Positions 6,550 through 62,117 are shown, counted from the first letter of the stretch. The stretch: DNA of 64,000 nucleotides from Candidatus Omnitrophota bacterium (GCA_041653955.1 JBAZEH010000001.1:53342-117341); one strand, 5' to 3'. Made by a program: numbers and translations. The notes: a model not told the origin generated them from the sequence alone.

Positions 6550-6568
6550 CTCAATTCTCTAAATTTTA

Positions 6569-24929: not shown

Positions 24930-24932
24930 ACT

Positions 24933-26411: not shown

Positions 26412-26415
26412 AATA

Positions 26416-27721: not shown

Positions 27722-27722
27722 T

Positions 27723-33658: not shown

Positions 33659-34602
33659 TACCCCGATACGGCCAATCCTACCGCCATAACCGCGAGTATG
33701 GTCATGGGCCCCCAGAAGAATTTCAGCGCCTGGTCAATGCGCAGACGGGGGTTGGTATTTTTGATCAATATAATTACTACCAATAACACGGTATATTTAC
33801 CTATTAAAGCTAACGGGGAAAGGCTGCTTCCCCAGAATAGGGCTACCAATAATAAAGGCATCGTATAAAGCAGGAGCGCCTTGGTCATTTTGAATACGGC
33901 CAGCGGCAGCCCGGAATATTCAATAAGGACCCCCGCCATTATCTCCTGTTCCGCTTCAGATATATCAAAGGGAACGAAACCCAGCTTTGCCTGCATGCAG
34001 AATATGCTTACGATAAACGCCAACGCCCCGGACCAGGATGCCAGGTTAGAACCGAAATTTATCTGGTGGTTAAGTATGGAACCCAGTTGTATGCTTCCCG
34101 CGCTCCTGATCACCACAGCGATCACCGAGAGTATGAACGGGAGTTCATACGCCATGACGAGTTTCATCTCTCTTGACGCGCCCACCGAAGCGAGGGGGTT
34201 ACGCGAACTGGATGCCCCAATTATCATACCTATGGCCGGGATTACCAGAAGGTATAATATAACGATCAGGTCCCCGGTAAAACTCTCAAGGGGAGAGCGC
34301 ACGGTAAGGCCCGTGATAGTAGCTACCATTATAGTGCTCAATAATCCCGCGAAAGGCGCCAAAAGAAAGGTCAATTTTGCCGCGCCCTGGGGTATGATCG
34401 TTTCCTTGCCAAGCAACTTTACTATATCTATAAAATTCTGGTACCACGGAGGGCCCACGCGCCACTGTATTCGGGCGGTAACCTTCCTGTCTACCCATCC
34501 GGCCAAAAGCCCGACGCAGGAGCTGAAAAGAAAACCGGGGAATATCAGATAACTGAATATTATCTTCATCTCTTCTTTATCTGCAGGTCCTCCTTTGACC
34601 AC
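33655..34602 (-). CDS. Hydrogenase membrane subunit (NuoH/HycD/EchB/MbhM-like).
   Basis: NuoH-family 8-TM protein; RKVTARIQWRVGPPW. Confidence 0.8.
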   Translation of the reverse strand: MVKGGPADKEEMKIIFSYLIFPGFLFSSCVGLLAGWVDRKVTARIQWRVGPPWYQNFIDIVKLLGKETIIPQGAAKLTFLLAPFAGLLSTIMVATITGLTVRSPLESFTGDLIVILYLLVIPAIGMIIGASSSRNPLASVGASREMKLVMAYELPFILSVIAVVIRSAGSIQLGSILNHQINFGSNLASWSGALAFIVSIFCMQAKLGFVPFDISEAEQEIMAGVLIEYSGLPLAVFKMTKALLLYTMPLLLVALFWGSSLSPLALIGKYTVLLVVIILIKNTNPRLRIDQALKFFWGPMTILAVMAVGLAVSGY

Positions 34603-35057
34603 TTAAGGGTATGCACCGCCAGATGATCTCCTACAAAATAAATATTTTTCTCCGGGTCCTCTGCGACCTCTTTGACCTCTATCGCCTTCTCTGGGCATGT
34701 GGTTACGCATTTAGGGAGTTTACCGGATACGCCTACGCAATAATCACAACGGGAGTCCAGGTAAGGAATAAAATCCTGGAAGATTATCCCGAAAGGGCAG
34801 GCGACGCTGCAGGACTTGCAGCTTGTGCAGCGCATCTTATAACGCTTAAGATGGCCGTCCGCGGAACGCTCAAGCGCATTATGATAGCAGGAGTTCACGC
34901 AGGGGGCCTCTTCGCAATGACGGCAGATAGTAGCAAAGGTCGCGTATTCGCGCAGCGATGTAACCCCGTTATTCTGCGGATGATAGAAATAATCGCAGGT
35001 TACCTTGCACTCCTCGCATTTAGCGCAAACTTCAAGATCAACGAATAACCTTTTCAT
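34566..35057 (-). CDS. Polyferredoxin-like 4Fe-4S protein (HycB/HydN-like).
   Basis: Several CxxCxxCxxxCP-type clusters across 163 aa. Confidence 0.7.
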   Translation of the reverse strand: MKRLFVDLEVCAKCEECKVTCDYFYHPQNNGVTSLREYATFATICRHCEEAPCVNSCYHNALERSADGHLKRYKMRCTSCKSCSVACPFGIIFQDFIPYLDSRCDYCVGVSGKLPKCVTTCPEKAIEVKEVAEDPEKNIYFVGDHLAVHTLKWSKEDLQIKKR

Positions 35058-35060
35058 AAA

Positions 35061-35876
35061 TCAATCCCAGATATCGTGCGTATCCTTTAATTGGTCATAA
35101 GTAAAGACCGGGCCGTCTTTACAGGTATAATAACTTCCTAAACGGCAATGCCCGCATTTACCAAGGCCGCAGGACATATTCTTTTCCATGGAGAGATATA
35201 TACCCTCCGGGTCAAACCCCAGGTCCAATAATTTCAATGTAACGAATTTCATCATTATCGGAGGGCCGCATACTATACAGACCGCTTTCTTCAGGTCCAC
35301 CGGAACGTCTTTCAATATCGTGGTGACCAGGCCCACATTCCCTTTCCAGCCCGGGGTACCCACGTCCACGGTAGTCACTATATCTACCTTTTTCTTCTTT
35401 GCCCACTGGGGAATAGCTTCCTTGTATATGATGTCGTTTGCCGTGCGCGCGCCGTAGCGCAGGACCACTTTATTATATTTGTCTATTTCCGAAAAGAGGC
35501 TGAAAAGCAGGGAGCGCAGCGGCGCCAGCCCTACCCCTCCTCCCACTATCAGGATATCCTTGCCCGCGAATTTTTCAAGCGGATACCCTTTGCCATACGG
35601 GCCGCGTATCCCTAATGATATATTCTTTTCGCTGGTGTGCAAAATAGAGGTGATCTTGCCGGCCTTCATGATCGTCACATCCATCTTGTCCGTTATATTA
35701 GGGTCGGATGAAGGAGTAAAAGGGGCTTCCCCTATCCCCGGCAGAGTCAGCTCTATGAACTGCCCTGTCCTGAACTCAAATGGCTCCTTAGGCCTTAAGA
35801 CAAATGTCTTAATTGTAGGGCTTTCAATGATTATATCTTCAAGTATCGCTTCCTTGGGAGCGTAAATATTATTCAT
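35061..35876 (-). CDS. FAD/NAD(P)-binding [2Fe-2S] oxidoreductase (AsrB / sulfhydrogenase gamma / PyrK-like).
   Basis: RxFT flavin motif (EFRTGQFIEL), GGGVGLAPLRSL NAD(P) motif and C-terminal CGxGxCxxC [2Fe-2S] motif. Confidence 0.8.
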   Translation of the reverse strand: MNNIYAPKEAILEDIIIESPTIKTFVLRPKEPFEFRTGQFIELTLPGIGEAPFTPSSDPNITDKMDVTIMKAGKITSILHTSEKNISLGIRGPYGKGYPLEKFAGKDILIVGGGVGLAPLRSLLFSLFSEIDKYNKVVLRYGARTANDIIYKEAIPQWAKKKKVDIVTTVDVGTPGWKGNVGLVTTILKDVPVDLKKAVCIVCGPPIMMKFVTLKLLDLGFDPEGIYLSMEKNMSCGLGKCGHCRLGSYYTCKDGPVFTYDQLKDTHDIWD

Positions 35877-36934
35877 TTCGCGCCACCGAGCTTGACAGCC
35901 AGGTCCTTCAATACTTCCCTTATATCTATCTTACCCGGGCATACCTCAATGCACCTGCCGCAGCCGCAACATGCGGGCATACCTAAATTATCTATGAAAA
36001 AATCAAACTTCTTGGTAAATCTGAATCTTAGCCTTTGCGCCCTTAGTTTATTTGGATTTGCCCCGCCCGCTACCCTGGCGTAATTGGCGTATAAACACGC
36101 GTCCCACAACTTGACCTTCTTATTAGTGCTGCCTTCTTTTTTATCCGCCAGCAGGAAACAATGGCAGGTATCACATATAAAATTGCACCCGCCGCATTCA
36201 ACGCAGGTGCTCATGAACTTCTGCCAGGTATCCAGGCTGTAGCCGTCCTTAACCAGCCTTTGCACGCTGTCCTTAGAAACCAGGTGTTGGGGCAGAAGGT
36301 GCTTTTTTAACCGCTCTATGAGGCTCTCTCTCTTTGCCTTACGCGATGCTATCTGGGTATCCCTGGCTGGAGAAAAAAACTCTTTATACTGCTGTATCAA
36401 CTCCTCGCCTTTTTTTGAGCCCACTTCCACAAGATAACCTTCGCTTAAAGGAGAAAGGTTAATGTCGAATCCTTCCGCCGGATGCGGCAATATCTCCCAG
36501 GCAAGGCAATGGCAGACATCCTTAAAGTCAGTGCAGTCGCTTGAGATAATCACCGTATTTTCGCGCCTTAAACGATAGATAGGATCTACCTCTACTCCTT
36601 CCAGGAATACGAAATCCTGGACCTTATGCCCTGCTATATCACACGCCTTGACCCCGAATATAACCACGCGTTCCGGCTGTGCGACAGGCCGGCCTGGCGA
36701 GAAATATTCCGCCGCCTCGTCCTGCGCGTAAGTAAAGAATGATTTAAGGGGTTCGACTGCGCGGTAAGGGTTGAATTGGAAGGGTTCACCTTCGGGAGTC
36801 TCCCTGAAGGAATAATCAGTCCTTTTGGTGAAATTCTGTTCTTTCGCAACCGGAGAGAATACCCTGTACCTTCTCTTCAGGTCATTAAAGAAACTCTCAA
36901 ACCGGCCGGATTCAATATAGTATATATTATACAT
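35873..36934 (-). CDS. AsrA / sulfhydrogenase beta-like FeS subunit. The probable start is the ATG at 36934 (MYNIYY...); the ORF-track extension to 37000 is less likely.
   Basis: CVECGGCNFICDTCHC and CCGCGRCIEVCP cluster motifs. Confidence 0.7.
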   Translation of the reverse strand: MYNIYYIESGRFESFFNDLKRRYRVFSPVAKEQNFTKRTDYSFRETPEGEPFQFNPYRAVEPLKSFFTYAQDEAAEYFSPGRPVAQPERVVIFGVKACDIAGHKVQDFVFLEGVEVDPIYRLRRENTVIISSDCTDFKDVCHCLAWEILPHPAEGFDINLSPLSEGYLVEVGSKKGEELIQQYKEFFSPARDTQIASRKAKRESLIERLKKHLLPQHLVSKDSVQRLVKDGYSLDTWQKFMSTCVECGGCNFICDTCHCFLLADKKEGSTNKKVKLWDACLYANYARVAGGANPNKLRAQRLRFRFTKKFDFFIDNLGMPACCGCGRCIEVCPGKIDIREVLKDLAVKLGGAK

Positions 36935-36943
36935 CCTGGGAGA

Positions 36944-36973
36944 ATTATAAAAAATGGGAGGGATATTATGCAA
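36944..36973 (-). promoter_or_regulatory. Candidate promoter of the hydrogenase-Mrp operon: TTGCAT, 18 nt, TATAAT, then 9 nt to the ATG (near-leaderless).
   Basis: Read directly on the minus strand; a second TTGACA candidate lies near 37026-37031. Confidence 0.3.
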
Positions 36974-37061
36974 AATACCACAAAATAGCCCTGACAACAA
37001 AAAGGTTATAATAAAATACTATATTTACCCCTTATTGTCAAGAAAAAAAACAGTAATCGCG

Positions 37062-45566: not shown

Positions 45567-46490
45567 CTATACAATCTTCAGCATCATATCTATGGCTTTT
45601 TTGGCGCGTATGCGGACGGAATCAGAGACCTTAACTTCTTCCTTAAGTTCCTCCAGCGCCCAAAGGATCTTCTCCTGCGTAGTGCGCTTCATATTGGGGC
45701 ACACCGCCCTTTCGGAAGCAGGATAGAATTCTTTGGTGGGATTATCCTGTTTAAGGCGGTATATGAGCCCGACTTCGGTCCCGATAATGAACTCCCTGGC
45801 ATCGCTTTCTGCAGCAAGTTTACCCATCCTGCTGGTTGAAAGCACCGCGTCAGCCATAGATACTACTTGGGGGAGGCACTCCGGATGCACCATTACTATA
45901 GCCATAGGGTGAAACTTTTTTTCCCGTTTTATATCTTCCGGGAGTATCTTAACATGAGTAGGGCAGAAACCGTTCCAGGAGATAAGCTCCCTCCCGGTCT
46001 GTTTTGAGACGTAATCAGCCAGGTATTTATCAGGGACGAATATGATCTCCTTCTTGTCTTTAAATGCCTCAACCACCGCCACGGCATTTGTAGAGGTGCA
46101 ACATACATCTAATTCGGCCTTTACCTCGGCGGAGGTATTCACATACCCTACCGCCACGGCCTTAGGGTGTTTCTTTTTCAGGGCCCTGAGGTCATCCGCG
46201 GTGATCATATTCGCCATAGGGCAACCCGCGAAAAGATCTGGCATAATAACCAATTTATGCGGGCAGAGTATAGAGGCGGTCTCCGCCATAAAATGCACCC
46301 CGCAAAAAACAATCACTTTAGCGTCCGTATTGGCCGCGATACGGCTAAGCTCCAGGGAATCCCCGTGAAAATCAGCTACGTCCTGGACTTCGGGAAGCTG
46401 ATAGTTATGCGCCAGGATCACGGCATCGCGTTTTTTCTTAAGCGCCTCGATCTTCCTGGTTAAATCGTCTGAATGGTTTTTTTTCGTCAT
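45567..46490 (-). CDS. nadA: Quinolinate synthase.
   Basis: ILAHNYQ ... three-repeat NadA fold. Confidence 0.85.
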   Translation of the reverse strand: MTKKNHSDDLTRKIEALKKKRDAVILAHNYQLPEVQDVADFHGDSLELSRIAANTDAKVIVFCGVHFMAETASILCPHKLVIMPDLFAGCPMANMITADDLRALKKKHPKAVAVGYVNTSAEVKAELDVCCTSTNAVAVVEAFKDKKEIIFVPDKYLADYVSKQTGRELISWNGFCPTHVKILPEDIKREKKFHPMAIVMVHPECLPQVVSMADAVLSTSRMGKLAAESDAREFIIGTEVGLIYRLKQDNPTKEFYPASERAVCPNMKRTTQEKILWALEELKEEVKVSDSVRIRAKKAIDMMLKIV

Positions 46491-47555
46491 TTATATCATC
46501 CTGTCTATAATGCCTCCGCCTAAAACCTTATCTTTATCGTAGAATACTGCTGATTGCCCCGGTGTTACGGCAAACTGCGGTTCCTTGAACTTTACCCTCG
46601 CCTTATTCCCAGCGAGAGTAACTACTGCGGGTGCCTCGGAATGATTATACCTTATCCTCACCTTCAAGGCAACCTTCTTTTTTTTAAAAGGAAAAATAAG
46701 GTGCGTATCGCGGAGGGTAAATTCATCTGCATAAACATCCTCTTTTCTGCCTACTGTTATGGAGTTGGCGCGCGGGTCTATCTTTGTCACGTATACGGGA
46801 TAACCCATGGCGATACCTAAACCCTCGCGCTGCCCGATAGTGTAAAAAGCTACGCCGTTATGCCGGCCGAGGATATTGCCGTCCCCATCCAGTATGGGCC
46901 CGGGGTTTGCATATTTTTTGGACCGGGCCTTTAAAAAAGAACGGTAGTCGGCATCAGGTATAAAACATATCTCCTGGCTGCCTAATTTTTCCGCCACCGG
47001 AAGCGAAAAATCCCTCGCTATTTTCCTTACCTCATCTTTAGTATATCCCCCAAGAGGGAATAATATACGCTTTAACTGGCGCTGCCCTAAACGGTATAAA
47101 AAATAAGACTGGTCCTTTTTCCTGTCTCTCCCTTTTCTTAATGAATATTTTGAATTTTTAATAATACGCGCGTAGTGCCCGGTAGCAAGATACGCGGCCC
47201 CTAAGAAGGCCGTCCTCTTTAACAAAGCATCAAATTTTATATACTGGTTGCACCGCACGCACGGATTGGGGGTCCTACCTTTTGAATATTCCAGGCAGAA
47301 CTCTTTGACTACCTTCTCCTCTAAAAGCTTCTTAAAATTCAGGGCATAATGCTTTATACCTAATTTATGCGCGACCCTCTTCGCATCCTCTATCCCCCGG
47401 ATACCGCAACAGGACGGCCTCCTGCCGGAAGAATCCGGAAGATTAAAGCATAATGTTATTCCGACGACTTCATAACCATCGCTCTTTAAGAGCGCCGCGG
47501 CCACCGAAGAATCAACCCCGCCGCTCATCGCCACCACCACGCGTTCTCTTTTCAT
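46491..47555 (-). CDS. mnmA: tRNA 2-thiouridylase.
   Basis: VVAMSGGVDSSVAA PP-loop motif and MnmA-like C-terminus. Confidence 0.9.
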   Translation of the reverse strand: MKRERVVVAMSGGVDSSVAAALLKSDGYEVVGITLCFNLPDSSGRRPSCCGIRGIEDAKRVAHKLGIKHYALNFKKLLEEKVVKEFCLEYSKGRTPNPCVRCNQYIKFDALLKRTAFLGAAYLATGHYARIIKNSKYSLRKGRDRKKDQSYFLYRLGQRQLKRILFPLGGYTKDEVRKIARDFSLPVAEKLGSQEICFIPDADYRSFLKARSKKYANPGPILDGDGNILGRHNGVAFYTIGQREGLGIAMGYPVYVTKIDPRANSITVGRKEDVYADEFTLRDTHLIFPFKKKKVALKVRIRYNHSEAPAVVTLAGNKARVKFKEPQFAVTPGQSAVFYDKDKVLGGGIIDRMI

Positions 47556-50143: not shown

Positions 50144-51100
50144 TTATCTGCAATGCGTCACATCCCCGGCCATTACCTTATGTATGAGGCCTGAGTCATT
50201 ACGCACCAGGAGCCCTCCGTCTTCATCTATATCCACAGCATGGCCTTCGATATGCTCGTTGCTAAACGCCACCTTTATCCTCCTGCCGAGGCTCAAATTC
50301 CACTCGCGCCATTTTTCTATTATCGGGCGGCTCCCTTTCTTCTGAAATATAAGGTAATTGTCTTCTATCCTGCGCAATATCTCCTGCAATAACTCCACGC
50401 GGCTTATATCTTCGGCGGCCTGTTCTTTTAAGGATGTTGCCCCTGCAGGAAGGTTTTTCTTGTCATTGTTAACATTCAATCCTACACCCACGACTACAAA
50501 ACGGCTCATATCGGTCTCGGCGTTCAACTCGGTCAATATGCCGCCTAATTTTTTATGGTGTATCAATATATCGTTCGGCCATTTTATCCGGCAGGATAAA
50601 GCCGTCTTCTCCTTTATTGCTTCACATACCCCGACCGCAGCCATCAGGGTAAGCAGGGGTGTCCGGTTAGGGGGGATATTAGGCCTTAATATTAAAGACA
50701 TATATATACCTTTGTATTTCGGAGATGACCATTCCCTCCCAAGCCTCCCTCTTCCTTTTGCCTGGGACTCAGCCAGTATAATGGACCCTTCGGGAGCCCC
50801 TCCCAGGGCCAGCTTTAAAGCGCTGTCCATAGTTGAAGAGAGTGCGTCAAAATAGTATATCTTTTTCCCGATGATCCCTGTATTTAAGCGGCTGCTCACC
50901 TCCGAAGGGAATAACCTGTCGGGGCATGATACGAGCTTATAGCCAAGGTGAGGAACGGCTACGATCTCGTAACCGTGCTCTTTAAGGGCGTGGATATGTT
51001 TCCAAAGCGCCTGGCGCGTTATCCCGAGGCGATGGCTTAACTGATCGCCTGAGACATAATCCTCTTTTCTTTTTAAGAAATCGATTATCTTATCATTCAT
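50144..51100 (-). CDS. birA: Bifunctional biotin-protein ligase / biotin operon repressor.
   Basis: N-terminal wHTH (LSHRLGITRQALWKHI) plus biotin-protein ligase (BPL) catalytic domain (GRGRLGREW). Confidence 0.85.
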   Translation of the reverse strand: MNDKIIDFLKRKEDYVSGDQLSHRLGITRQALWKHIHALKEHGYEIVAVPHLGYKLVSCPDRLFPSEVSSRLNTGIIGKKIYYFDALSSTMDSALKLALGGAPEGSIILAESQAKGRGRLGREWSSPKYKGIYMSLILRPNIPPNRTPLLTLMAAVGVCEAIKEKTALSCRIKWPNDILIHHKKLGGILTELNAETDMSRFVVVGVGLNVNNDKKNLPAGATSLKEQAAEDISRVELLQEILRRIEDNYLIFQKKGSRPIIEKWREWNLSLGRRIKVAFSNEHIEGHAVDIDEDGGLLVRNDSGLIHKVMAGDVTHCR

Positions 51101-51102: not shown

Positions 51103-52266
51103 TTATTTCTTTTCATAAAGGGGGGACATGCGGCGCAATTTATCAACTATCCCGGGCAGGTACTCCAAGAGGGAATCAATATCCTCCTTCTTTGTCCATC
51201 TGCCCAGCGTTACCCTTAATGAGCCGTGGGCTATCTCATGGGAAAGCCCTATCGCCAACAATACATGAGATGGTTCCAAAGAGGTGGAAGTGCAGGCAGA
51301 ACCCGTGGACGCGGCTATCCCCAGCATATCCAGGTTAAGCAGGATAGATTCTCCTTCTATATACTTGATGGAGAAATTAACGTTATTAGGGAGCCGTTGT
51401 GTGGGGTGCCCGTTCAGGTATACTTCGGGGATCTTATCTTTTATCTCGTTGATCGTTCTGTCGCGTAATGACGCTAAAAATATGGCTTCATCTTTCATCT
51501 TCTCCCGGCATAATTCTATAGCCTTTCCTGTCCCCACAATACCGGGAGTATTATGGGTAGAGGCCCGGCGGCCATTCTCCTGGTCCCCGCCCCTCAAGAA
51601 ACTCTCTAACCGCGTCCCCTTCCTTATATAGAGGGCGCCTGCGCCTTTAGGCCCGTAGAATTTATGGGCCGACAGGGATAAGAGGTCAACGTTCAGATCA
51701 TTTACGTTTACAGGTATATGCCCTACCGTCTGGACCGCATCGGTATGAAAATATACCCCTTTTCCCCGCGCGATCTTACCAATCTCGGCAATGGGTTGTA
51801 TCGTGCCTATCTCATTATTTGCGTGCATAACAGAGATCAACACAGTCTTGTCGGTAATAGCTTTCTTTATGTCATCGGGAGAGACCAGGCCATATTTATC
51901 AACTCCGATATAGGTAACCTTAAATCCCCTCTTTTCCAGCAGCTTGCAGGGCTCGGCTATGGCGTGGTGTTCAATCGCCGTAGTAATGATATGGTTACCC
52001 TTATCCTCCCTGGCATAGGCCGTGCCATAAACCGCGTAATTATTGGATTCCGTCCCCCCCGAAGTAAATACTATCTCTCCCGGAGCCGCCCCCAGAAATG
52101 AAGCGAGCTCATTACGCGCCTCCTCTATCGCCCCCTTTGCCTCCTGGCCAAAAGAATGGATACTGGATGGATTGCCGAACTTTTCAAAACAATACGGCTC
52201 CATCGCCTTTGAAACTTCGGGGTCGCAGGGTGCTGTAGCGGCATAATCCAAATATACCCTTTTCAT
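51103..52266 (-). CDS. nifS: Cysteine desulfurase (NifS/IscS class).
   Basis: SLSAHKFYGPKGAGALY PLP-lysine motif; ASTGSACTS active-site loop. Confidence 0.85.
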   Translation of the reverse strand: MKRVYLDYAATAPCDPEVSKAMEPYCFEKFGNPSSIHSFGQEAKGAIEEARNELASFLGAAPGEIVFTSGGTESNNYAVYGTAYAREDKGNHIITTAIEHHAIAEPCKLLEKRGFKVTYIGVDKYGLVSPDDIKKAITDKTVLISVMHANNEIGTIQPIAEIGKIARGKGVYFHTDAVQTVGHIPVNVNDLNVDLLSLSAHKFYGPKGAGALYIRKGTRLESFLRGGDQENGRRASTHNTPGIVGTGKAIELCREKMKDEAIFLASLRDRTINEIKDKIPEVYLNGHPTQRLPNNVNFSIKYIEGESILLNLDMLGIAASTGSACTSTSLEPSHVLLAIGLSHEIAHGSLRVTLGRWTKKEDIDSLLEYLPGIVDKLRRMSPLYEKK

Positions 52267-53105
52267 CGTTTTATCACCTCATTTAAGCTGCCTGTGCGGT
52301 AACCTTGCAGATCTACAGTTATATAATTATATCCTAACTTTTTTAGTTTTTCTACTATCTCCTTATCCCGTCCGATAAGGCGCCTTATATCCTTCCTCGG
52401 CACCTCGATGCGGCATAGGCCGTTGTAGTGCCTCAACCTCACCTGGAGAAAACCGGATTTTCTTAAAAAGTTTTCTGCGCTGTTTACTCTTTCCAGAAGA
52501 GGCGCCGTTATCTTTACGCCGTAAGGGATACGGGAAGCAAGACAGGCCATAGCGGGCTTATCCCAGGTAACCAGCCCCAGTTTCCTGCTCAATGACCTGA
52601 TATCGCCTTTGTTAAATCCTGCCTCTTCAAGGGGAGAACGCACCCCCGACTGTTTCCTGGCTTTGCTCCCGGGGCGGAAATCACCTCTATCCGATACACT
52701 GCTGGCATCTGCCACAAAATCCAATTTTGATTTTTTTGCAATATCCGCAAGCCTGCGGAAAAGCTCTCTTTTACAGAAATAGCAGCGTTTAATAGTGTTC
52801 GCGGTAAAATTCCTGTCTTCTAGTTCACGGGTTTTGATCAACTTATGCCTTACGTCAAGGGCGCGCGCGATCTTCCTGGATAATAACAGTTCCTCTTTGG
52901 GGTAAGTTGCCGAATAAGCGGTAACCGCGAGGATCTTGTCCTTAGGTAATACCATCGAAGCTGCCTTAAGCAATAAAGTGCTGTCTGCCCCGGCGGAAAA
53001 AGCAATCAGAACGGACCGCATACCCGAAATTATATCCCTAAGCCGCCTTTCCTTGTCTCTTAATTCCATCGTTAAAACCGCACTTCCATCGCACGCGTGG
53101 GGCAT
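52263..53105 (-). CDS. PP-loop ATP pyrophosphatase of the LarE/TIGR00268 type (putative sulfur transferase).
   Basis: FSAGADSTLLL PP-loop variant; conserved CYFCK region. Confidence 0.6.
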   Translation of the reverse strand: MPHACDGSAVLTMELRDKERRLRDIISGMRSVLIAFSAGADSTLLLKAASMVLPKDKILAVTAYSATYPKEELLLSRKIARALDVRHKLIKTRELEDRNFTANTIKRCYFCKRELFRRLADIAKKSKLDFVADASSVSDRGDFRPGSKARKQSGVRSPLEEAGFNKGDIRSLSRKLGLVTWDKPAMACLASRIPYGVKITAPLLERVNSAENFLRKSGFLQVRLRHYNGLCRIEVPRKDIRRLIGRDKEIVEKLKKLGYNYITVDLQGYRTGSLNEVIKR

Positions 53106-53479
53106 ATCTTAACGCAAAGTTCGCAGGCGATGCATTTATTGTCGTAAAAAAGCACCTTGCGCGTAATAGGGTCAACTACCAGCGCCCCGGTAGGGCATAT
53201 AGGGACACATGCCCCGCAATCCGTGCATTTGCTTTGATTACGGATAACATCCTGGCTTAACGGTTGTATCCTTACGCCGCATGACTGCAGATATTCCACG
53301 CCTTTTTTGAAATTATCCTCTTTACCGGTTAACTCCAGGACCATGAGCCCCTCTTCCTGCGGAGTCACGTAGGCCTTGAGGATATTAAACTGCAGGTCAT
53401 ACTCCTTGACCAGCTTATAAACGATCGGCTGATCAACCAAACGATGAGGAAAATGTAACACTATCCTTTTTGATGGCAT
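53072..53479 (-). CDS. NIL-domain 2x[4Fe-4S] ferredoxin (MA1822-like).
   Basis: N-terminal NIL domain (… LQFNILKAYV …) plus CTDCGACVPICP and CIACELCVKICP. Confidence 0.7.
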   Translation of the reverse strand: MPSKRIVLHFPHRLVDQPIVYKLVKEYDLQFNILKAYVTPQEEGLMVLELTGKEDNFKKGVEYLQSCGVRIQPLSQDVIRNQSKCTDCGACVPICPTGALVVDPITRKVLFYDNKCIACELCVKICPTRAMEVRF

Positions 53480-53494
53480 CTCTATTTCTCCTTG

Positions 53495-54697
53495 CTAAAC
53501 TATCGGCCTTTCTTTTAACGCCTTAAAAGTATACCCTGAATCCGCCTGCGGTAAGGGAGCGACCGGCTCAGTAAGAAGAAAATCCCCTTTCCTGATCCAT
53601 AATTTCAGCTCCTCGGCTATATCCCGCGCCTTGGAATAACTGGAAAGGCTGCCCGTAGGCACCTGTTTCCCGCGCACTGTAATAGTGCCGGATTTTAACT
53701 GCGCGTAGTTTACTTCAGCGAGGCTGCCGGCAACCATTTGCGGGTATGCCTCGGAATAATCCACTACCTGCGTGTAAAGGTCTTCGTCACGTATTGCGGC
53801 ATATTTAACTGTTTCTTCATCCAACACGGGTATTGGGACACCGATACCAACGATCAGGGTCACGCCATATCCCAGCATGCTTGTCCCTACCAGCCACTCC
53901 GGCTTCATCTGTTTCAGGTCTCCTATAACAGCAATAGTGCCCGCGGGGGCCTGCGGCGCGCCATTCTCTTTCCTTTTAACGGCGGGGTTATGCTGCGTGC
54001 CGTGCCAAGCGATATAGCCCACGCCTCCTCCTAAAAATATCTTTGTGCCGACACCCAACGTCTTATAATACGGGTCCTTTAAGAGCGGTGAGAGCTGCCC
54101 CGCGGAACAATAGTTGGCGTTCCCCAGTCTCGGCTTGAGGGCACCCATATAAGTATAGATCATCTTATCCGATAAGTTGACCGCCACATTATAATTCTGG
54201 TAGCAATTGCGGATATTGAACAGGACCGCCTCATTCAGGTTTTTGATATTCAGCAGCGTCTCCAGCTTCTTTCGGGGATAACAATCCGTGCCGTAAGCCG
54301 CAGCCTCCAATCTCACGTCGCGGCCGGATACTATATCATGGATAACATGGCCCCCACCATATTTGAATTCGCCAGGAAATACCTTATTAAGCGGATCATC
54401 ATCAGGCACGGCTGTCGCGCCCAGATAAAAATCCACTGCCGCAAAACCTGTATAGGCAGGCACGTCATTTACCTTGCATGAACCTCCCCCTATCTTGATC
54501 CTCGGTTTTGAATGCCCTACATTAAAATATGCCCCGCTTGAGCACATCGGCCCGAAGGTGCCGGTAGTAACTACATCCACTTCTTGCGCGGCTTTCTTCG
54601 CGCCCTTCCTGCCGACTAAATCGATTATCTCTTCGGCGGTCACGACTACTGCCTCGCCTTTTTTTATCTTCGCGTTTATCTCTTTTATGCTCTTCAC
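53495..54697 (-). CDS. COG1900/DUF39 protein (MA1821-like, implicated in sulfide-dependent homocysteine biosynthesis).
   Basis: N-terminus MKSIKEINAKIKKGEAVVVTAEEIIDL … TGTFGPMCSSGA; adjacent to a NIL-ferredoxin as in methanogens. Confidence 0.55.
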   Translation of the reverse strand: MKSIKEINAKIKKGEAVVVTAEEIIDLVGRKGAKKAAQEVDVVTTGTFGPMCSSGAYFNVGHSKPRIKIGGGSCKVNDVPAYTGFAAVDFYLGATAVPDDDPLNKVFPGEFKYGGGHVIHDIVSGRDVRLEAAAYGTDCYPRKKLETLLNIKNLNEAVLFNIRNCYQNYNVAVNLSDKMIYTYMGALKPRLGNANYCSAGQLSPLLKDPYYKTLGVGTKIFLGGGVGYIAWHGTQHNPAVKRKENGAPQAPAGTIAVIGDLKQMKPEWLVGTSMLGYGVTLIVGIGVPIPVLDEETVKYAAIRDEDLYTQVVDYSEAYPQMVAGSLAEVNYAQLKSGTITVRGKQVPTGSLSSYSKARDIAEELKLWIRKGDFLLTEPVAPLPQADSGYTFKALKERPIV

Positions 54698-54716
54698 CGA
54701 AATCCCTCCTTGATAC

Positions 54717-54938
54717 CTATATAGCGATCACTTCTTTTATCCCCGGGACCTCTTCTTTTAATACTTTCTCAACCCCCATCTTCAAGGTCATCTGGCTCAT
54801 AGGGCAGCAGCCGCAGCTACCGGTAAGCTTTAATTTTACTACGCCCTCCGGGGTAATCTCCACCAATTCTACATTACCGCCGTCCGCCATCAACATGGGG
54901 CGGATCTTATCTAACGCCTGCTCTACTTTTTCTTTCAT
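54717..54938 (-). CDS. NifU-like (Nfu-type) Fe-S cluster carrier domain protein.
   Basis: [14 protein letters not shown] … GSCGCCPMS CxxC motif. Confidence 0.75.
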
Positions 54939-54960
54939 TTCCCCTCCTCCTCACTATATC

Positions 54961-55884
54961 CTATTGCTTGAATAGATCCGTACTCAGATACCTTTCTCCC
55001 GTATCCGGCAATATCACGACCACAAGTTTACCCTTGTTCTCCTTACGCCTTGCCACATCAAGCGCGGCAAAGATAGCGGCCCCTGACGAGATCCCTGCCA
55101 AAATACCCTCCTTCTTTGCCAGATCCTTGGCTGTAGCCAGGGCATCTTCATTAGAAACCTGGATTACCTCATCAACGATCTTTATATTCAATACTTCAGG
55201 CAGGAACCCTGCCCCGATACCCTGGATCTTGTGCGGCCCGGGTTTTCCTCCGGATAATACCGGGGAATCCTTCGGTTCAACCCCGATGACATTGAACGCG
55301 GGATTCCTGGACTTAAGGACCTCGCCTACTCCGGTAATAGTGCCTCCGGTGCCTATACCTGCTACCAGAATATCTGCTTTTCCCTCGGTATCACTCCATA
55401 TTTCTTCTGCCGTGCCCTTACGGTGCGCCCCGGGATTCGCCGGGTTCCTGAACTGCTGCGGCATAAAATAACGTTTATCGCTTTTGACTAACTCTTCGGC
55501 CTTCCTCACTGCTCCCGTCATACCCTCTGAACCGGGAGTCAGGATTATCTTAACTCCGAACGCGGATAAAAGCTGGCGGCGCTCAATACTCATCGTCTCC
55601 GGCATAGTCAAAACCAGTTTATACCCCTTAACCGCGCAGACAAAAGCCAACGCGATACCCGTATTTCCGGAAGTCGGCTCTACGATCACCGTCTCCTTCC
55701 CGATCTTTCCTTCCCTCTCGGCTGCCTCTATCATACCCAGGCCTATCCTGTCTTTTACGGAAGAGCAGGGATTATAAAATTCTAACTTAGCCGCTACGGC
55801 AGCCACGCAGCCCTCGGCGATCCTGTTCAGCCGCACTAAAGGCGTATTGCCGATAAGTTCTGTGATATCGTTAGCGATCTTCAT
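54961..55884 (-). CDS. cysK: Cysteine synthase (O-acetylserine sulfhydrylase).
   Basis: IGNTPLVRL … SSVKDRI PLP-lysine motif … GTGGTITG. Confidence 0.85.
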
Positions 55885-55892
55885 ATATTCTG

Positions 55893-56333
55893 TTATATCT
55901 GGTATACTAACGCAGAATTCAGGTTCTTATTTTTCTTCAGTATATCTTCAAAGGTAATATTGTCAATAATACGATTGGTGCTTTCGGATACCTTGCGCCA
56001 TATATCCCTGAAAACGCACCTGTTTATATCACTGCAGCCTTTGTACCCTCTGCCAACACAGGCGATCGGCTCAATAGGCCCGTCAACAAACTTGATCACC
56101 TCCCCCAGTTTTATCTCTGAAGGTTTTCTGGCTAGAAGGTAACCGCCGACCTTTCCGCGCCTGCTCTCCACAAAACCTCCTCTTTTTAAATCAAGGAGTA
56201 TCTGCTCCAGGAACTTTATCGGTATATCCGCCTGTTTAGCCAGCTCATTAATAGTCACAGGTCCGCTCTGGGAGTGCGAAGCCAGGCCCAGGATCGTTTT
56301 TAAAGCGTAATCTCCTCTATAAGTTATTCTCAT
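55893..56333 (-). CDS. Rrf2-family transcriptional regulator (IscR/CymR-like) with three Cys.
   Basis: wHTH … [22 protein letters not shown] … C-x-C cluster ligands. Confidence 0.8.
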
Positions 56334-56403
56334 ATGTTTTTACCCTATAATCTCTATTATAATAGTAGAGTATACCTTAAAAAAAATATTTGTCAAGTAT
56401 TTT

Positions 56404-57368: not shown

Positions 57369-58271
57369 TTATTTACGTTGGGCCAAATACCTGAACGCGC
57401 TTAACGCGGCCTTAGAGCCCTCGCCCGCGGCGATAATGATCTGTTTCTCGGGGAGGTCGGTAACATCCCCGGCTGCGAATATGCCGGGAATATTCGTTTC
57501 ATTACGGAAATTTACTTTTATCTCATTGTATTGGTTTCTTTCTATATCCCCTGCAAACTCCGAGTTCGGTATAAGGCCTATCTCTATGAATACGCCCTGC
57601 ACATCCAGCTGGCCATCTTCGCCTTCTTTTTCTATCTTTATGGCACTTACCATCTTCTCTCCCAATACGGCAGTTACCCGCGTATTATTAAAAACGGAAA
57701 CTGCACTGCTCTGCGTTACCTTATCCCTCATAACAGCGTCCCCGCCCAGCGCCCCGGTAATATTGATAATATATACATGTTTGGCTATCCTGATCAATTG
57801 CAGAGCCGCGTCTAAAGCGGAGTTGCCTCCGCCGATAACCGCGACATCCCTGCCGGAGAATAAAGGCCCGTCACAGGTAGCGCAATAGGTCAGGCCTTGA
57901 TTCTTGAACTCTTTCTCTCCGGGGACATTCAGCTCCTTTGACCTTTTACCTGAGGCGATAATAACGGTCGCGGCCTCATAAGAGCCTTTATCGCTCGTAA
58001 CCACTATCTTATCGCCTGTTTTCTTAAGGCCTGAAACCAGTTCATTTTCCTTCAGCGCGATATTGAACTTACGCATATGCTCTTCAAATTTTGACGCAAG
58101 TTCCGGGCCAGTTATAAACTGATAACCGGTATAATTCTCTATATCACCGCTCCATGCTGCCTGGCCGCCTATATCCTTACTTATAACCAGGAACTCCATC
58201 TTCCTGCGGGCAGCGTAGACTGCCGCGGTTATGCCTGCGGGGCCGGCGCCGATAATAATCAAGTCATACAT
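57369..58271 (-). CDS. trxB: Thioredoxin reductase.
   Basis: GAGPAG FAD motif; redox-active CATCDG. Confidence 0.85.
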   Translation of the reverse strand: MYDLIIIGAGPAGITAAVYAARRKMEFLVISKDIGGQAAWSGDIENYTGYQFITGPELASKFEEHMRKFNIALKENELVSGLKKTGDKIVVTSDKGSYEAATVIIASGKRSKELNVPGEKEFKNQGLTYCATCDGPLFSGRDVAVIGGGNSALDAALQLIRIAKHVYIINITGALGGDAVMRDKVTQSSAVSVFNNTRVTAVLGEKMVSAIKIEKEGEDGQLDVQGVFIEIGLIPNSEFAGDIERNQYNEIKVNFRNETNIPGIFAAGDVTDLPEKQIIIAAGEGSKAALSAFRYLAQRK

Positions 58272-58276
58272 ATTAC

Positions 58277-58513
58277 TTATATCCCCAATGCTGTTTTTAT
58301 TCTTTCTTTGTCAAATCCTACAATGATATCGCCTTCGATATCCAGGACAGGGACCCCCATCTGGCCGGATACGCGCATCATCTCCTCTGCAGCGGCCTGA
58401 TCCCCTGAAACATTAATATCCTGAAAAACTATATTACTCTCTTTAAGAAATTGTTTAGCCCGGATACAGTATGGACAGGTGGGGGTGCTGTAAACTTTTA
58501 CATTTTTAGCCAT
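58277..58513 (-). CDS. Glutaredoxin-like protein.
   Basis: VYSTPTCPYCIRAK CPYC active site; 78 aa. Confidence 0.8.
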   Translation of the reverse strand: MAKNVKVYSTPTCPYCIRAKQFLKESNIVFQDINVSGDQAAAEEMMRVSGQMGVPVLDIEGDIIVGFDKERIKTALGI

Positions 58514-58524
58514 CTCTTCTCCTC

Positions 58525-59001
58525 TTAAAGGGTAGTTTTCAATTCCTGGAGCTGTTTTAAGTGGCCTTTCTCCTGCGCGATCACTTCGTCCACGATCTTA
58601 TGGCCGTCCGCGGGGACCACCTTCTTCATCCCCTCATAGAAAGTTATAGAATCTTCTTCCGCCTTTATGCCTATACCTATCGCTTCCTGGTCGCTCTTTA
58701 CTTTGGCCGCTATCTCTATACCCTTATCCTTCTGAGTAAATACGCTCCCCTCGGCAAGCGAGCTCATATAGGCGAAATATTCACCCGGATACGCCTCGGC
58801 AGGTTCATATTTTTCTATTGCCCCGAGCAACTCCTGAAAAACCTTCATATGTTCTTCCTCCTGGGACGCGAGGTAATCAAATATCTTTTTTGAATCTTCA
58901 TTCCTGGATTGTTTGGACAGAGTGCCGTAAAAATCTCTCCCGTTCTTTTCGATCTGGATACCTATTTCCACTATTTCGCTTGCGGCAAATATATTCCCCA
59001 T
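58525..59001 (-). CDS. Ferritin-like/rubrerythrin-like diiron domain protein (no rubredoxin domain).
   Basis: ExxH-type pairs (QEEEHMKV … EKGH). Confidence 0.5.
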   Translation of the reverse strand: MGNIFAASEIVEIGIQIEKNGRDFYGTLSKQSRNEDSKKIFDYLASQEEEHMKVFQELLGAIEKYEPAEAYPGEYFAYMSSLAEGSVFTQKDKGIEIAAKVKSDQEAIGIGIKAEEDSITFYEGMKKVVPADGHKIVDEVIAQEKGHLKQLQELKTTL

Positions 59002-59014
59002 ATCTTACACTCCT

Positions 59015-59476
59015 TTATTTTAGATGGCGCGGCGTAAGGTCAACTATATCCTCAACTTCCATAGTGATCATGTATTTTGGCTTCGGGAGAAGAATCTCGG
59101 GGTGCCTGGGATGCCCCCTCTCTTCCCGTATATTCTTCAAAAGCCTCTGCGTTAACCTGCTGGTGATCCTGGCTTCCCACGCCTTGATAATATCAGGCTT
59201 AAGCTCTCCTTCCGGGGTTATCAAGGCCTTGCCCTTAAGGCAATAACCTGTAAATTTATGTTCATCTATGGCCGTAATTGCCATGCCGGGGTCCCTCCTG
59301 AGGTTCTCGTATGTGAAACCGTGGTAAAGGTCAAGAAGATAGACCCTGCCGTTACTGGTTATGTCTATTATCCCCTTGCAGGAACTGTGGGGGAAACCGT
59401 TCCTATCCACGGTAGAGACAATAACGCACCCCTGTTTATGAAAAAACCTGATTATCGATTCACTTAATCTTTTCAT
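59015..59476 (-). CDS. Pyridoxamine 5'-phosphate oxidase-like FMN-binding split-barrel protein.
   Basis: PNPOx-like fold pattern; 153 aa. Confidence 0.55.
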   Translation of the reverse strand: MKRLSESIIRFFHKQGCVIVSTVDRNGFPHSSCKGIIDITSNGRVYLLDLYHGFTYENLRRDPGMAITAIDEHKFTGYCLKGKALITPEGELKPDIIKAWEARITSRLTQRLLKNIREERGHPRHPEILLPKPKYMITMEVEDIVDLTPRHLK

Positions 59477-59515
59477 ATTCTTGCCGTAACAGATTATATC
59501 ACAGTTATCAGTTCC

Positions 59516-59692
59516 TTACCGCATCAATTCCACTATTTTCTTCTCAATCAGCAGCTTATGCTTTGCCTCTTCCTGCGAGAGAAAAAGAAAAATATCCTTC
59601 GCCGCCGGAAAATCATTCATAAATTTATCATACATATCTTTTGCCTCTACTTCCTTTGATAATGCCAGCCGCAACGCCTCTATCGGTCCCAT
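59516..59692 (-). CDS. Small (~58 aa) ferritin-like helical ORF, not in the ORF track. Its ATG overlaps the fprA stop (TAATG).
   Basis: Manual translation gives MGPIEALRLALSKEVEAKDMYDKFMNDFPAAKDIFLFLSQEEAKHKLLIEKKIVELMR. Confidence 0.4.
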   Translation of the reverse strand: MGPIEALRLALSKEVEAKDMYDKFMNDFPAAKDIFLFLSQEEAKHKLLIEKKIVELMR

Positions 59693-60888
59693 TATCCTTC
59701 TCCTTTTATCTTTTTGGCAAAATCACTGCCATATTCATAAGAACGCCTGGTATCTTCGGCATCGGGAACGTATTTTACCGATAAGCCCGGTTGGGAAATC
59801 TCCATGCCGGTGGATTTAAGGATATCTTCTATCTCCTTTACCGCTCCCCCTGCCCACCCGTGCGAACCGAATACACAGGCCTTCCTGCCCTTAAGCGCGA
59901 ACGGCTTCACAAACTGTAAAAACGCGGCCATAGTAGGAAGCATGCCGTTATCATGAGTGGATGAGCCGAATAAAAACCCTCTTGCCTCAAGCATCTCTTT
60001 AGTGACCTCCGTGCGGTCTGCCGCGTTCACGTCAAAAAGCTTCACCTCAACCCCGGCATCTATCATGCCCTCCGCCATCTTCCTTGCCATCTTTTCGGTT
60101 GAGCCCCACATCGTCTCGTAGGCGATAACCACCTTAGGCCTGGTTTCATTATTCGCCCAGGAGGCATAAGCTTTTATTATCTTCATAGGGTCGCGGCGCC
60201 AGATAATACCATGGCTGGGAGCTATCATCTTAATAGGGAGGCCCGTCTTCTGTATCTCTTCCAATTTCCTGAGTATAACCGCGCTTAAAGGCCAAAGTAT
60301 ATTAGAGTAATATTTTGCCGCTTCATCCATAAGCGCGCATTCATCAACCTCATCGTCAAAACGCCCGGAGGTAGCGTAATGCTGGCCGAATGCGTCATTA
60401 GGCATCAATAACTGCTCCTGCGGACAATAGGTGAACATGCTGTCCGGCCAGTGGATCATCGGCGCCTCTATAAAGCTCAAGGTCCTTTTGCCTAATTCCA
60501 GGGTATCCCCTGTTTTAACCGTCTGGAACTCCCAGTCGCCGTAATAATTACGGTATAAACCCTCCTTGCACTTAGCAGTGCCCAATACCTTCGCCTTGGG
60601 GCATAATTTCATTATCGCCGGAAGCGCCCCGGAGTGGTCCGTCTCCACATGGTTTGCTATAACATAATCTATCTTTCCAACGGGCATAACCTCGCTGATA
60701 TTATCTATCAACTCACCCGCGAACGGCCCGTGCACCGTATCTATAAGGACATTTTTTTCATCCGCGATAAGATAGGCGTTATATGTCGTGCCTCTTTTGG
60801 TGCTGTAAGTGTGCCCGTGAAAATTGCGCATGTTCCAATCTATGACTCCCACTGAATAAATACCGGGTAATATCTTTAAAACGGACAT
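59692..60888 (-). CDS. fprA: Flavodiiron protein (rubredoxin:O2/NO oxidoreductase; metallo-beta-lactamase plus flavodoxin domains).
   Basis: HxExDH diiron motif (HVETDHSGAL) and C-terminal flavodoxin domain. Confidence 0.85.
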   Translation of the reverse strand: MSVLKILPGIYSVGVIDWNMRNFHGHTYSTKRGTTYNAYLIADEKNVLIDTVHGPFAGELIDNISEVMPVGKIDYVIANHVETDHSGALPAIMKLCPKAKVLGTAKCKEGLYRNYYGDWEFQTVKTGDTLELGKRTLSFIEAPMIHWPDSMFTYCPQEQLLMPNDAFGQHYATSGRFDDEVDECALMDEAAKYYSNILWPLSAVILRKLEEIQKTGLPIKMIAPSHGIIWRRDPMKIIKAYASWANNETRPKVVIAYETMWGSTEKMARKMAEGMIDAGVEVKLFDVNAADRTEVTKEMLEARGFLFGSSTHDNGMLPTMAAFLQFVKPFALKGRKACVFGSHGWAGGAVKEIEDILKSTGMEISQPGLSVKYVPDAEDTRRSYEYGSDFAKKIKGEG

Positions 60889-60903
60889 TATTTACCTCCT
60901 GTT

Positions 60904-61644
60904 CTAATACCCCTGGAACCTCTCGGTAATAATATTATCTTCTGATAAAGAGAGCTCCTCTAAAAGTATCTTTTGCATCGCCTCTACCATGGAGGGCGGG
61001 CCGCAAAGAAAAAACTTTCTTAAAGAGTAGCCGGGAACCTCATTCTTAATTACCTGGGAGTTGATCAGCCCTATGGTACATTTGAACCCTAAAGCTGGCT
61101 CGCATAGCACATGCGCCACTTTTAATCTCCGGTTCTCTTTCTGCATGGAATCAAGGTCTTCCCTGAAAATAATATCCTTTATGGAACGATTGGCGTAGAC
61201 CAGCACTATATCGGTATCCAGCTTCTTATCCGTAGCATACTTGCATATGCTCCTTACCGGGGTTATTCCTATCCCGCCGGCAAGAAAAGCTACCTTCGAA
61301 TAACCCTCCTGAAGGGTGAAACTCCCCATGGGATATTTTACGATCAACGGGTCTTTCTCCTTCAAATTATCCAGGGCCTTGGAGAAATCGCTCTGGGTGA
61401 TCCTTTTAGTGAATTCAATGTATCCTTTTTCGGTAGGAGAGCTAGATATGGATAGATACCGCCTGCATTCCTTCTCCGTCTTTAGCGAAACGCAGAGAAA
61501 CTGGCCGGACCTGTAATCTATCTCCTTTTCCGTCTTGAGACGGAAACTCTTCACATTAGGCGCCCGCTTAATGACCTCGCTGACCTTTAGTTCCAATTCA
61601 TCCGGCATTACTATCCTTTCAACCCCTTTATTATCTCTCTGCAA
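60904..61644 (-). CDS. FNR-type FAD/NAD(P)H oxidoreductase (possible NAD(P)H:rubredoxin reductase partner of FprA).
   Basis: RRYLSISS (RxYS) FAD motif, GGIGITP NAD(P) motif. Confidence 0.65.
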   Translation of the reverse strand: MQRDNKGVERIVMPDELELKVSEVIKRAPNVKSFRLKTEKEIDYRSGQFLCVSLKTEKECRRYLSISSSPTEKGYIEFTKRITQSDFSKALDNLKEKDPLIVKYPMGSFTLQEGYSKVAFLAGGIGITPVRSICKYATDKKLDTDIVLVYANRSIKDIIFREDLDSMQKENRRLKVAHVLCEPALGFKCTIGLINSQVIKNEVPGYSLRKFFLCGPPSMVEAMQKILLEELSLSEDNIITERFQGY

Positions 61645-62117
61645 AACGCCGGCAGGTCATAAGGGTTGCGGGAAGTAATGAGATTGCCGTCAACCACTAC
61701 ATCCCTATCCACATATTTGGCCCCGGCATTTATAAGATCGTCTTTTATCGCCGAAAAACCGGTTACCTTCTTCCCCTTCAGTATAGAAGCTGAAACAAGC
61801 ACCCATCCTCCGTGGCATATGGCGGCTACGATCTTCCCTCTTTTGAAGATCTCATTTACGAACCTGTTGACCTCTTCATATCTCCTTAAGATATCCGGCG
61901 CATATCCTCCGGGTATGACTACGGCGTCAAAGTCATGCGCACCCGCCTTCTTAATGGATAACTCTTCTTCAGCCGGATACCCCTCCTTACTTTTATATTC
62001 TTTCTTTCCCGTGCCCACCAACACGGCCTCCATCCCTTCTTCACGAAGGCGTAAATAAGGATACCAGACCTCCAGCACCTGATACTGGTCCTCCACTAAG
62101 ACCGCTACCCTCTTCAT
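61611..62117 (-). CDS. DJ-1/PfpI-family protein.
   Basis: Conserved nucleophile elbow AICHGGWVL. Confidence 0.75.
   Translation of the reverse strand: MKRVAVLVEDQYQVLEVWYPYLRLREEGMEAVLVGTGKKEYKSKEGYPAEEELSIKKAGAHDFDAVVIPGGYAPDILRRYEEVNRFVNEIFKRGKIVAAICHGGWVLVSASILKGKKVTGFSAIKDDLINAGAKYVDRDVVVDGNLITSRNPYDLPAFCREIIKGLKG

Follow-up and report, generated by a model that had tools for sequence, protein, structure and literature searches.

We found a compact sulfur gene cluster in a 64,000-nucleotide stretch of a Candidatus Omnitrophota genome (GCA_041653955.1 JBAZEH010000001.1:53342-117341; this whole stretch is called the window, and all positions are counted from its first letter). Eight consecutive minus-strand genes, running from 56333 to 50144, encode an Rrf2-family regulator, the cysteine synthase CysK, an Nfu-type iron-sulfur (Fe-S) carrier, the COG1900 protein HcyBio, a ferredoxin with a NIL domain, a LarE-like PP-loop enzyme, the cysteine desulfurase NifS and the biotin protein BirA, all of which belong to known enzyme families. 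We favor, with moderate confidence, the reading that these genes form an Rrf2-controlled operon for sulfur assimilation and distribution, in which LarE is an ordinary catalytic [4Fe-4S] enzyme of its family, encoded next to the sulfur donor NifS and the cluster carrier Nfu. An earlier note on this DNA had proposed a persulfide/sulfide relay that feeds both cysteine and homocysteine synthesis under one regulator. The sulfur assimilation and distribution cluster of that proposal holds, while the part assigned to LarE in homocysteine synthesis is not supported as the note put it.

The operon could work as follows. A single promoter would drive all eight genes, and the first product, a three-cysteine Rrf2 protein of the Fe-S type, probably represses its own synthesis through a palindrome that overlies the -10 box. 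CysK would fix sulfide into cysteine, and COG1900 together with the NIL-2x[4Fe-4S] ferredoxin would act as L-ASST, the L-aspartate-semialdehyde sulfurtransferase, which forms homocysteine through a reductive transfer of sulfur; methionine is probably sensed by the NIL domain. NifS would remove the sulfur of cysteine as a persulfide, and the small Nfu protein would deliver [4Fe-4S] clusters to the Fe-S proteins of the operon. LarE, finally, would adenylate the carboxylate of a phosphorylated, nicotinate-type substrate, whose oxygen is then replaced by NifS-derived sulfur; it would not be a subunit of the homocysteine enzyme. The gene identities, active-site motifs, packing and conserved gene order and operator described below are observed, whereas the flow of sulfur from NifS to LarE and the nature of the LarE substrate are inferred.

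Gene content and packing of the operon

Seven of the eight genes had been named in the earlier note, and their identities and coordinates proved right: all seven minus-strand open reading frames (ORFs) were confirmed (7/7), each with a strong family score in Pfam and NCBIfam, including the three profiles that the note had proposed as checks (PF01837, PF09383 and TIGR00268). The unit extends one gene further than the note had drawn it, as the eighth gene, BirA, had been left out. The genes are, in order of transcription (nt, nucleotides; aa, amino acids):

55893-56333, minus strand: Rrf2-family regulator with Cys92, Cys100 and Cys106 (PF02082, 125.8 bits)
54961-55884, minus strand: cysteine synthase A, CysK (TIGR01139, 472 bits; cut-off, 351), beginning 8 nt past Rrf2
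54717-54938, minus strand: Nfu-type Fe-S carrier of 73 aa, NifU C-terminal domain only, with a CGCC motif (PF01106, 98.8 bits)
53495-54697, minus strand: COG1900/HcyBio (PF01837, 508 bits, E=1e-152, profile positions 1-349 of 349)
53072-53479, minus strand: NIL-domain 2x[4Fe-4S] ferredoxin, putative L-ASST subunit (PF09383, 60 bits, and Fer4 families)
52263-53069, minus strand, ORF open to 53105: LarE of the [4Fe-4S] type, an ATP-dependent sulfur insertase with a PP-loop (TIGR00268, 306 bits; cut-off, 150)
51103-52266, minus strand: NifS-type cysteine desulfurase (TIGR03402, 573 bits against an equivalog cut-off of 531)
50144-51100, minus strand: BirA, the bifunctional biotin ligase/repressor that ends the operon (TIGR00121, 227 bits, and HTH_11)

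Successive intergenic gaps from Rrf2 to BirA measure 8, 22, 19, 15, 2, -4 and 2 nt. The NIL-ferredoxin gene begins 15 nt downstream of COG1900, the LarE and NifS genes share a 4-nt ATGA overlap, and BirA begins 2 nt after NifS. Since most LarE homologues are 268 aa long, LarE probably starts at Met13 of its ORF (53069), 2 nt past the NIL-ferredoxin stop. The next gene, for a TonB-dependent receptor, is separated from the operon by a gap of 169 nt and a perfect TTGACA-16-TATAAT site. Known functional residues are in place: Nfu has Cys42, Cys44 and Cys45, and NifS carries both the lysine context for pyridoxal phosphate (SAHKF) and the catalytic Cys325 in GSACTS.

The homocysteine core is a known bacterial system

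The COG1900/NIL-ferredoxin enzyme, now named L-ASST, is represented by MA1821/MA1822 of Methanosarcina acetivorans, Dde_3007, DvMF_1464/DvMF_0262/DvMF_0044 and DET0921-DET0919. Like these systems, the window has a COG1900/PF01837 protein with both conserved cysteines and, adjoining it, a NIL ferredoxin with two [4Fe-4S] sites (two CxxCxxCxxxCP motifs). Membership of the protein in the DUF39 family, on which the earlier note had made its proposal depend, follows from the full-length PF01837 match. Cys52 (PMCSSG) and Cys139 (TDCYPRK) are invariant in our alignment of close homologues (A2) and lie in the same conserved motifs as the cysteines of an archaeal-type, CBS-bearing homologue (P0122). 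Because these motifs are shared, we take the two residues, compared through P0122, as the counterparts of Cys54 and Cys131, the conserved cysteines of MA1821, of which Cys54 is essential (PMC12068725). The window protein has no CBS domain, as is the case in Desulfovibrio. It differs from the described systems in that the pair is embedded in an Rrf2-CysK-Nfu...LarE-NifS-BirA operon.

The presence of this methanogen-type homocysteine system in bacteria is not new: COG1900 with an adjacent ferredoxin, often accompanied by COG2122, has been described in Desulfovibrio alaskensis, proof came from D. vulgaris Miyazaki, and Dehalococcoides has been noted to have it as well, so that the bacterial system is genetically proven (PMC4045070, PMC5764234). 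Homology to these proven systems suggests that the window pair likewise makes homocysteine.

A scan of species-representative genomes led by COG1900 yielded 80 loci from about a dozen phyla; it used alignment A2, as an alignment of 12 diverse COG1900 proteins (A1) was too divergent. COG1900 and NIL-ferredoxin are adjacent in nearly all 80 loci. Where enough upstream sequence was available (59 loci), Rrf2 lies upstream in 30 and CysK in 31, in Omnitrophota, Thermodesulfobacteriota, Spirochaetota, Elusimicrobia, Sumerlaeota, Actinomycetota, Aerophobetes, Chloroflexota, Saganbacteria and Planctomycetota. COG2122 (NF003323; PF27030; 'UPF0280, ApbE superfamily') occurs in 27 of the 80 loci and is, with Thi4, SufC, ThiS/ThiF, CysE, IscU and MOSC, among the other recurring neighbors, all of them sulfur-related. 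The Rrf2-CysK-COG1900-NIL operon with its recognizable operator is widely conserved, and we did not find it in the literature searched.

Genes for ThiS-like proteins with a C-terminal GG and for ThiF-like proteins stand a few genes downstream of COG1900-NIL-ferredoxin in four loci of Dehalococcoidia and some Planctomycetota (L037, L066, L071, L076), and L037, L071 and L076 also carry COG2122. These proteins could be another candidate sulfur donor for the COG1900 enzyme.

LarE has the features of a catalytic [4Fe-4S] enzyme

Window LarE aligns end to end with LarE of L. plantarum (5UDQ, E=5e-50, residues 8-266) and with the [4Fe-4S] LarE of M. maripaludis (PDB 8CNZ). Cys96, Cys99 and Cys176 form a CxxC...C triad that aligns with the [4Fe-4S] ligands of 8CNZ, the non-sacrificial type. 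Equivalents of Ser180, Arg181, Arg212 and Arg214 are present as well. Ser180, Arg212 and Arg214 bind the phosphate of the LarE substrate P2CMN (PMC9283937), and neither the window protein nor any of the 18 other COG1900-linked LarEs aligned departs from them. The PP-loop, the CxxC...C ligands and the phosphate-binding Ser/Arg/Arg set are thus shared with the enzymes of T. maritima and M. maripaludis. Two things differ: the PP-loop reads SAGADS (residues 24-29; 52981-52998, minus strand), with Ser and Asp kept and the first Gly changed to Ala, instead of the SGGxDS found in all 18 related LarEs and in the solved structures, and the window yielded neither larB nor larC.

LarE of T. maritima takes its sulfur from the cysteine desulfurase IscS (PMC9283937), and the placement of window LarE beside NifS matches this biochemistry. 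In T. maritima the desulfurase genes are far from larE, whereas in the window the NifS gene overlaps the LarE stop codon. Bacillus subtilis pairs desulfurases with their clients in the genome as YrvO-MnmA, NifZ-ThiI and NifS-NadA. The window resembles these pairs in that a NifS-type desulfurase stands beside persulfide- or Fe-S-dependent enzymes, here LarE, MnmA and NadA, but it groups one desulfurase with several clients and with cysteine and homocysteine genes in one regulated unit. MnmA and NadA, which are conserved downstream neighbors of the operon, are likely to be further clients of its desulfurase and Fe-S supply:

46491-47555, minus strand: MnmA (Pfam)
45567-46490, minus strand: NadA (Pfam)

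We searched for relatives with a metagenome scan led by a Thermodesulfobacteriota LarE (80 loci), in which larB and larC were sought by jackhmmer, starting from LarB and LarC proteins of the metagenome loci that Pfam had verified. Thirteen LarE-led loci carry larC (PF01969, 496 bits) and/or larB (AIRC) beside LarE, verified by Pfam, and COG1900/NIL-ferredoxin genes accompany LarE in the Thermodesulfobacteriota clade and in four further loci. Several LarE-led loci carry MnmA, NifS or IscU; LarE stands beside NifS, IscU and MnmA in the unrelated loci L133 and L143, the latter with the order Rrf2-COG1900-NIL-ferredoxin-LarE-NifS-IscU-MnmA-NadA, and the MnmA-LarE adjacency recurs in other phyla. 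[4Fe-4S] LarE genes thus often travel with a cysteine desulfurase.

With two larB/larC-linked LarEs (L112 and L109), window LarE shares 50% and 49% identity, and with COG1900-linked LarEs of other phyla it shares 49-52%. In a neighbor-joining tree with 60 bootstraps, whose deep nodes are unsupported, half of the replicates put larBC-linked LarEs inside the smallest clade that holds the Omnitrophota sequences. A separate clade of COG1900-linked LarEs was considered and rejected, with bootstrap values of at most 3% for any such grouping. Judged by these comparisons, a distinct homocysteine-type LarE subfamily does not appear to exist. The earlier note had named grouping with larB/larC-linked LarEs as the outcome that would speak against its proposal; this outcome is largely borne out by the identities and the active-site features, with the reservation that no larB or larC was found near the Omnitrophota copies.

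Gene order in Omnitrophota and other phyla

The closest homologues of window LarE, at 62-74% identity, belong to Candidatus Omnitrophota/Omnitrophica. The order Rrf2-CysK-Nfu-HcyBio-NIL-ferredoxin-LarE-NifS-BirA (variant A) recurs on other Omnitrophota contigs with LarEs 55-67% identical to that of the window, and there a TonB receptor, MnmA and NadA often come next. BirA comes after NifS or LarE in all variant-A loci, and the order BirA...MnmA-NadA is shared by L003, L004, L170, L171 and L172. A second Omnitrophota arrangement, variant B, reads Rrf2-(Thi4)-CysK-HcyBio-NIL-ferredoxin-COG2122 (L019, L086, L087, L088). Neither LarE nor COG2122 was found near the COG1900 operon in L013, L016, L017 and L031, and the presence of LarE, of NifS and of Nfu varies independently among some loci of the phylum.

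LarE lies within 6 kilobases (kb) of COG1900 in 14 of the 80 genome loci: nine of Omnitrophota, three of Thermodesulfobacteriota and one each of Saganbacteria and Planctomycetota. Eight of the nine Omnitrophota loci have NIL-ferredoxin-LarE followed by NifS and/or BirA, and the ninth (L015) is a 2.7-kb contig that ends within LarE. The three Thermodesulfobacteriota loci have NIL-ferredoxin-MnmA-LarE and then a ThiI/NFACT-R PP-loop protein, and the Saganbacteria locus has NIL-ferredoxin-BioY-unknown-LarE. In Thermodesulfobacteriota, a longer block reads LarC-two lipoproteins-TilS-Rrf2-CysK-COG1900-NIL-ferredoxin-MnmA-LarE-ThiI/NFACT-R (L057, L058, L090, L092; e.g. L092 3-9555), and in it the homocysteine genes are surrounded by larC and the genes of four PP-loop enzymes.

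One Omnitrophota locus, L172, whose LarE is 67% identical to that of the window, carries Nfu-LarE-NifS-BirA followed by MnmA-NadA, and no COG1900, NIL-ferredoxin or COG2122 was found within 10 kb upstream or about 6 kb downstream of LarE, where the contig ends (16.7 kb in all). Since L172 keeps the module without a nearby COG1900 pair, Nfu-LarE-NifS appears to be self-contained. Upstream of it (L172 3400-9730) lie genes for a ThiS-PALP fusion, a small sulfite reductase that has ferredoxin domains, TusA, a PALP enzyme, ThiS, ThiF, a NIL protein of 79 aa that stands alone and Thi4, which look like a protein-thiocarboxylate route to sulfur amino acids that replaces CysK/COG1900. In another Omnitrophota locus (L089, 9023-12198), the order is CysK-COG2122-MnmA and COG1900 is not adjacent. 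Linkage of COG2122 to COG1900 is therefore not universal among Omnitrophota, so that local absence becomes a weaker argument.

A biotin theme also runs beside the homocysteine genes: BioY transporter genes adjoin NIL-ferredoxin in two unrelated loci (L061 11737-12348; L134 8797-9564), BirA ends the Omnitrophota operon, and bioB-F-H-C-D-A come after BirA in L004/L005.

Does LarE serve homocysteine synthesis?

Several observations weigh against LarE being simply a client of NifS and Nfu. In variant A, LarE begins 1-4 nt past NIL-ferredoxin, the same slot in which COG2122 begins in variant B (1-4 nt past NIL-ferredoxin in 3/4 loci). LarE and COG2122 occur together in none of the 80 genome loci (14 with LarE only, 27 with COG2122 only; Fisher p=0.0018, uncorrected for phylogeny). 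At least four phyla have LarE downstream of NIL-ferredoxin at a distance of up to about 2.5 kb. The 64-kb window contains neither larB nor larC, no Omnitrophota LarE has either gene within 10 kb, and a PurE query, a weak test, found no LarB-like ORF; about half of LarE genes in general adjoin larC (PMC13082051).

These observations could be explained if LarE, NifS and Nfu were an alternative sulfur delivery to COG1900/NIL-ferredoxin that does the job of COG2122, with sulfur passing from the NifS persulfide to a fifth sulfide on the LarE [4Fe-4S] cluster and on to Cys52 of COG1900. We consider this explanation unlikely. The slot shared with COG2122 is the point that most favors a functional link between LarE and homocysteine, and the mutual exclusion extends to all 93 sequences (92 loci and the window; 0/93 with both); no COG2122/UPF0280 homologue occurs in any frame of the 64-kb window, operon included, and LarE is near NIL-ferredoxin not only in the four phyla of the genome scan but also in the unbinned metagenome loci L119, L134 and L143. 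However, the L-ASST substrate is an aldehyde and therefore needs no ATP-dependent activation of a carboxylate. LarE shows strict conservation of its nucleotide-phosphate binding residues. L172 has Nfu-LarE-NifS without COG1900 in its 16.7 kb, Thermodesulfobacteriota loci include larC, and L013, L016, L017 and L031 carry the COG1900 operon with neither LarE nor COG2122 near it. Local exclusivity is, moreover, weak evidence, because COG2122 may lie far from COG1900, as in D. vulgaris, and the Fisher statistic has no phylogenetic correction.

It is still less probable that the LarE-like enzyme thiolates some other substrate, a tRNA nucleoside or a small carboxylate, as one of several PP-loop enzymes fed by NifS. 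LarE does stand repeatedly among the PP-loop tRNA enzymes MnmA, ThiI/NFACT-R protein and TilS, its PP-loop is unusual, and no Omnitrophota copy has larB/larC nearby. Yet it matches LarE end to end and far above the curated cut-off, keeps all substrate-binding residues, has no RNA-binding domain and, by sequence, cannot be told apart from larBC-linked LarEs. That housekeeping genes came to lie together by chance, without common regulation or functional link, for which one might cite the independent variation of the accessory genes LarE, NifS and Nfu among Omnitrophota relatives and the ordinary frequency of promoter-like sites, is highly improbable given gaps of at most 22 nt and start/stop overlaps over eight genes, a gene order kept at 55-67% protein identity, a conserved promoter and operator, and the ties of all genes but BirA to sulfur or Fe-S chemistry.

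LarE is thus best read as a client of NifS and Nfu, because the module persists in L172 without COG1900 nearby and because larC occurs in the Thermodesulfobacteriota loci that combine COG1900 and LarE. It would be located here for the same reason as the nearby MnmA and NadA, namely as a client of this supply. We accordingly do not uphold the suggestion of the earlier note that the homocysteine system has LarE as a partner: the active-site features of the protein are all those of LarE, its identity to larBC-linked LarEs is equal to that with COG1900-linked ones of other phyla, and the larC-bearing loci and L172 point the same way. What prevents a firmer verdict is the lack of larB/larC near Omnitrophota LarE, together with the never-together slot pattern with COG2122.

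In our literature search, no paper was found that links LarE to the COG1900 homocysteine pathway. The same operon chassis holds either COG2122 or LarE-NifS in one slot and so offers a natural experiment on the sulfur donor for homocysteine. If LarE-NifS-Nfu did feed the homocysteine enzyme, the LarE family would gain a second role and a purpose of COG2122 would be identified; the LarE route would then replace the COG2122 of sister lineages, Desulfovibrio and methanogens. If LarE is merely a nickel-pincer enzyme, the finding amounts to ordinary operon bookkeeping.

Promoter, operator and Rrf2 regulator

The 70-nt gap upstream of Rrf2 contains a predicted promoter and, overlapping it, a candidate operator:

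56369-56396, minus strand: sigma-70-like predicted promoter, TTGACA, 16 nt, TATACT (11/12 matches to the consensus, on consensus only)
56345-56370, minus strand: candidate Rrf2 operator CTCTACTATTATAATAGAGATTATAG, a palindrome beginning inside the -10 hexamer

Both are conserved. Related Omnitrophota loci carry TTGACA-N16/17-TAtAcT upstream of their Rrf2 genes, and the element CTCTACTAA-N5-ATAGAGATTATAG is conserved at this place in both Omnitrophota operon variants, with related CTACTAAT...ATTAGTAG palindromes in loci of Spirochaetota, Actinomycetota, Sumerlaeota and Planctomycetota. The operator-like 26-mer occurs as a single copy in the window, with 0 expected from shuffles. These features suggest that Rrf2 binds the palindrome and, as a regulator of the Fe-S type, may repress its own transcription. 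The claim of a three-cysteine Rrf2 protein is borne out by Cys92, Cys100 and Cys106, a triad kept in 46 of 52 linked homologues. A single predicted promoter and operator, with the three-cysteine Rrf2 as first gene, also agree with the earlier proposal of a cluster under one regulator, a regulation that is predicted from these elements.

The window regulator shares with IscR and CymR the Rrf2 fold (PF02082), three conserved cysteines, cysteine and Fe-S genes as predicted targets, and an AT-rich palindromic site over its own predicted promoter. It differs in operator consensus and falls below both equivalog cut-offs (IscR, 111.6 against 207.55; CymR, 90.6 against 195), passing the Rrf2 superfamily model alone. 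The low scores and the differing consensus therefore point to an uncharacterized Rrf2 subgroup. No S-adenosylmethionine (SAM) or other riboswitch was found.

A second TTGACA-16-TATACT site (11/12) lies inside the 3' end of rrf2 (55939-55966, minus strand), about 55 nt before the cysK start, and no operator-like element follows it. This site could be an unregulated internal promoter or a chance occurrence; we do not rely on it, because promoter-like sites are as frequent in the window as in shuffled sequence.

Genomic surroundings

Between the TonB receptor and MnmA lies a Y1-type transposase gene (IS200/IS605-like, PF01797; 47656-48147, plus strand), the sole plus-strand gene there; related Omnitrophota loci have cold-shock or other genes at this position. 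Directly upstream of the sulfur operon, an oxidative-stress cluster (57369-62117, minus strand) encodes a flavoprotein resembling thioredoxin reductase, glutaredoxin, rubrerythrin, a PNPOx-like and a flavodiiron protein, an FAD/NAD oxidoreductase and a DJ-1/PfpI protein; L003, L170 and, in part, L086 keep this cluster in synteny with the sulfur operon. Farther away on the minus strand (4495-10612 and 23173-37000), where few ORFs were annotated, are an Rnf-type complex (RnfB-like, RnfD and RnfC-like) and a long cluster. The latter combines subunits of the NiFe-hydrogenase/complex-I 49-kDa and NuoH-like kinds with numerous small membrane proteins, and is probably a membrane-bound hydrogenase or an Mrp-type module.

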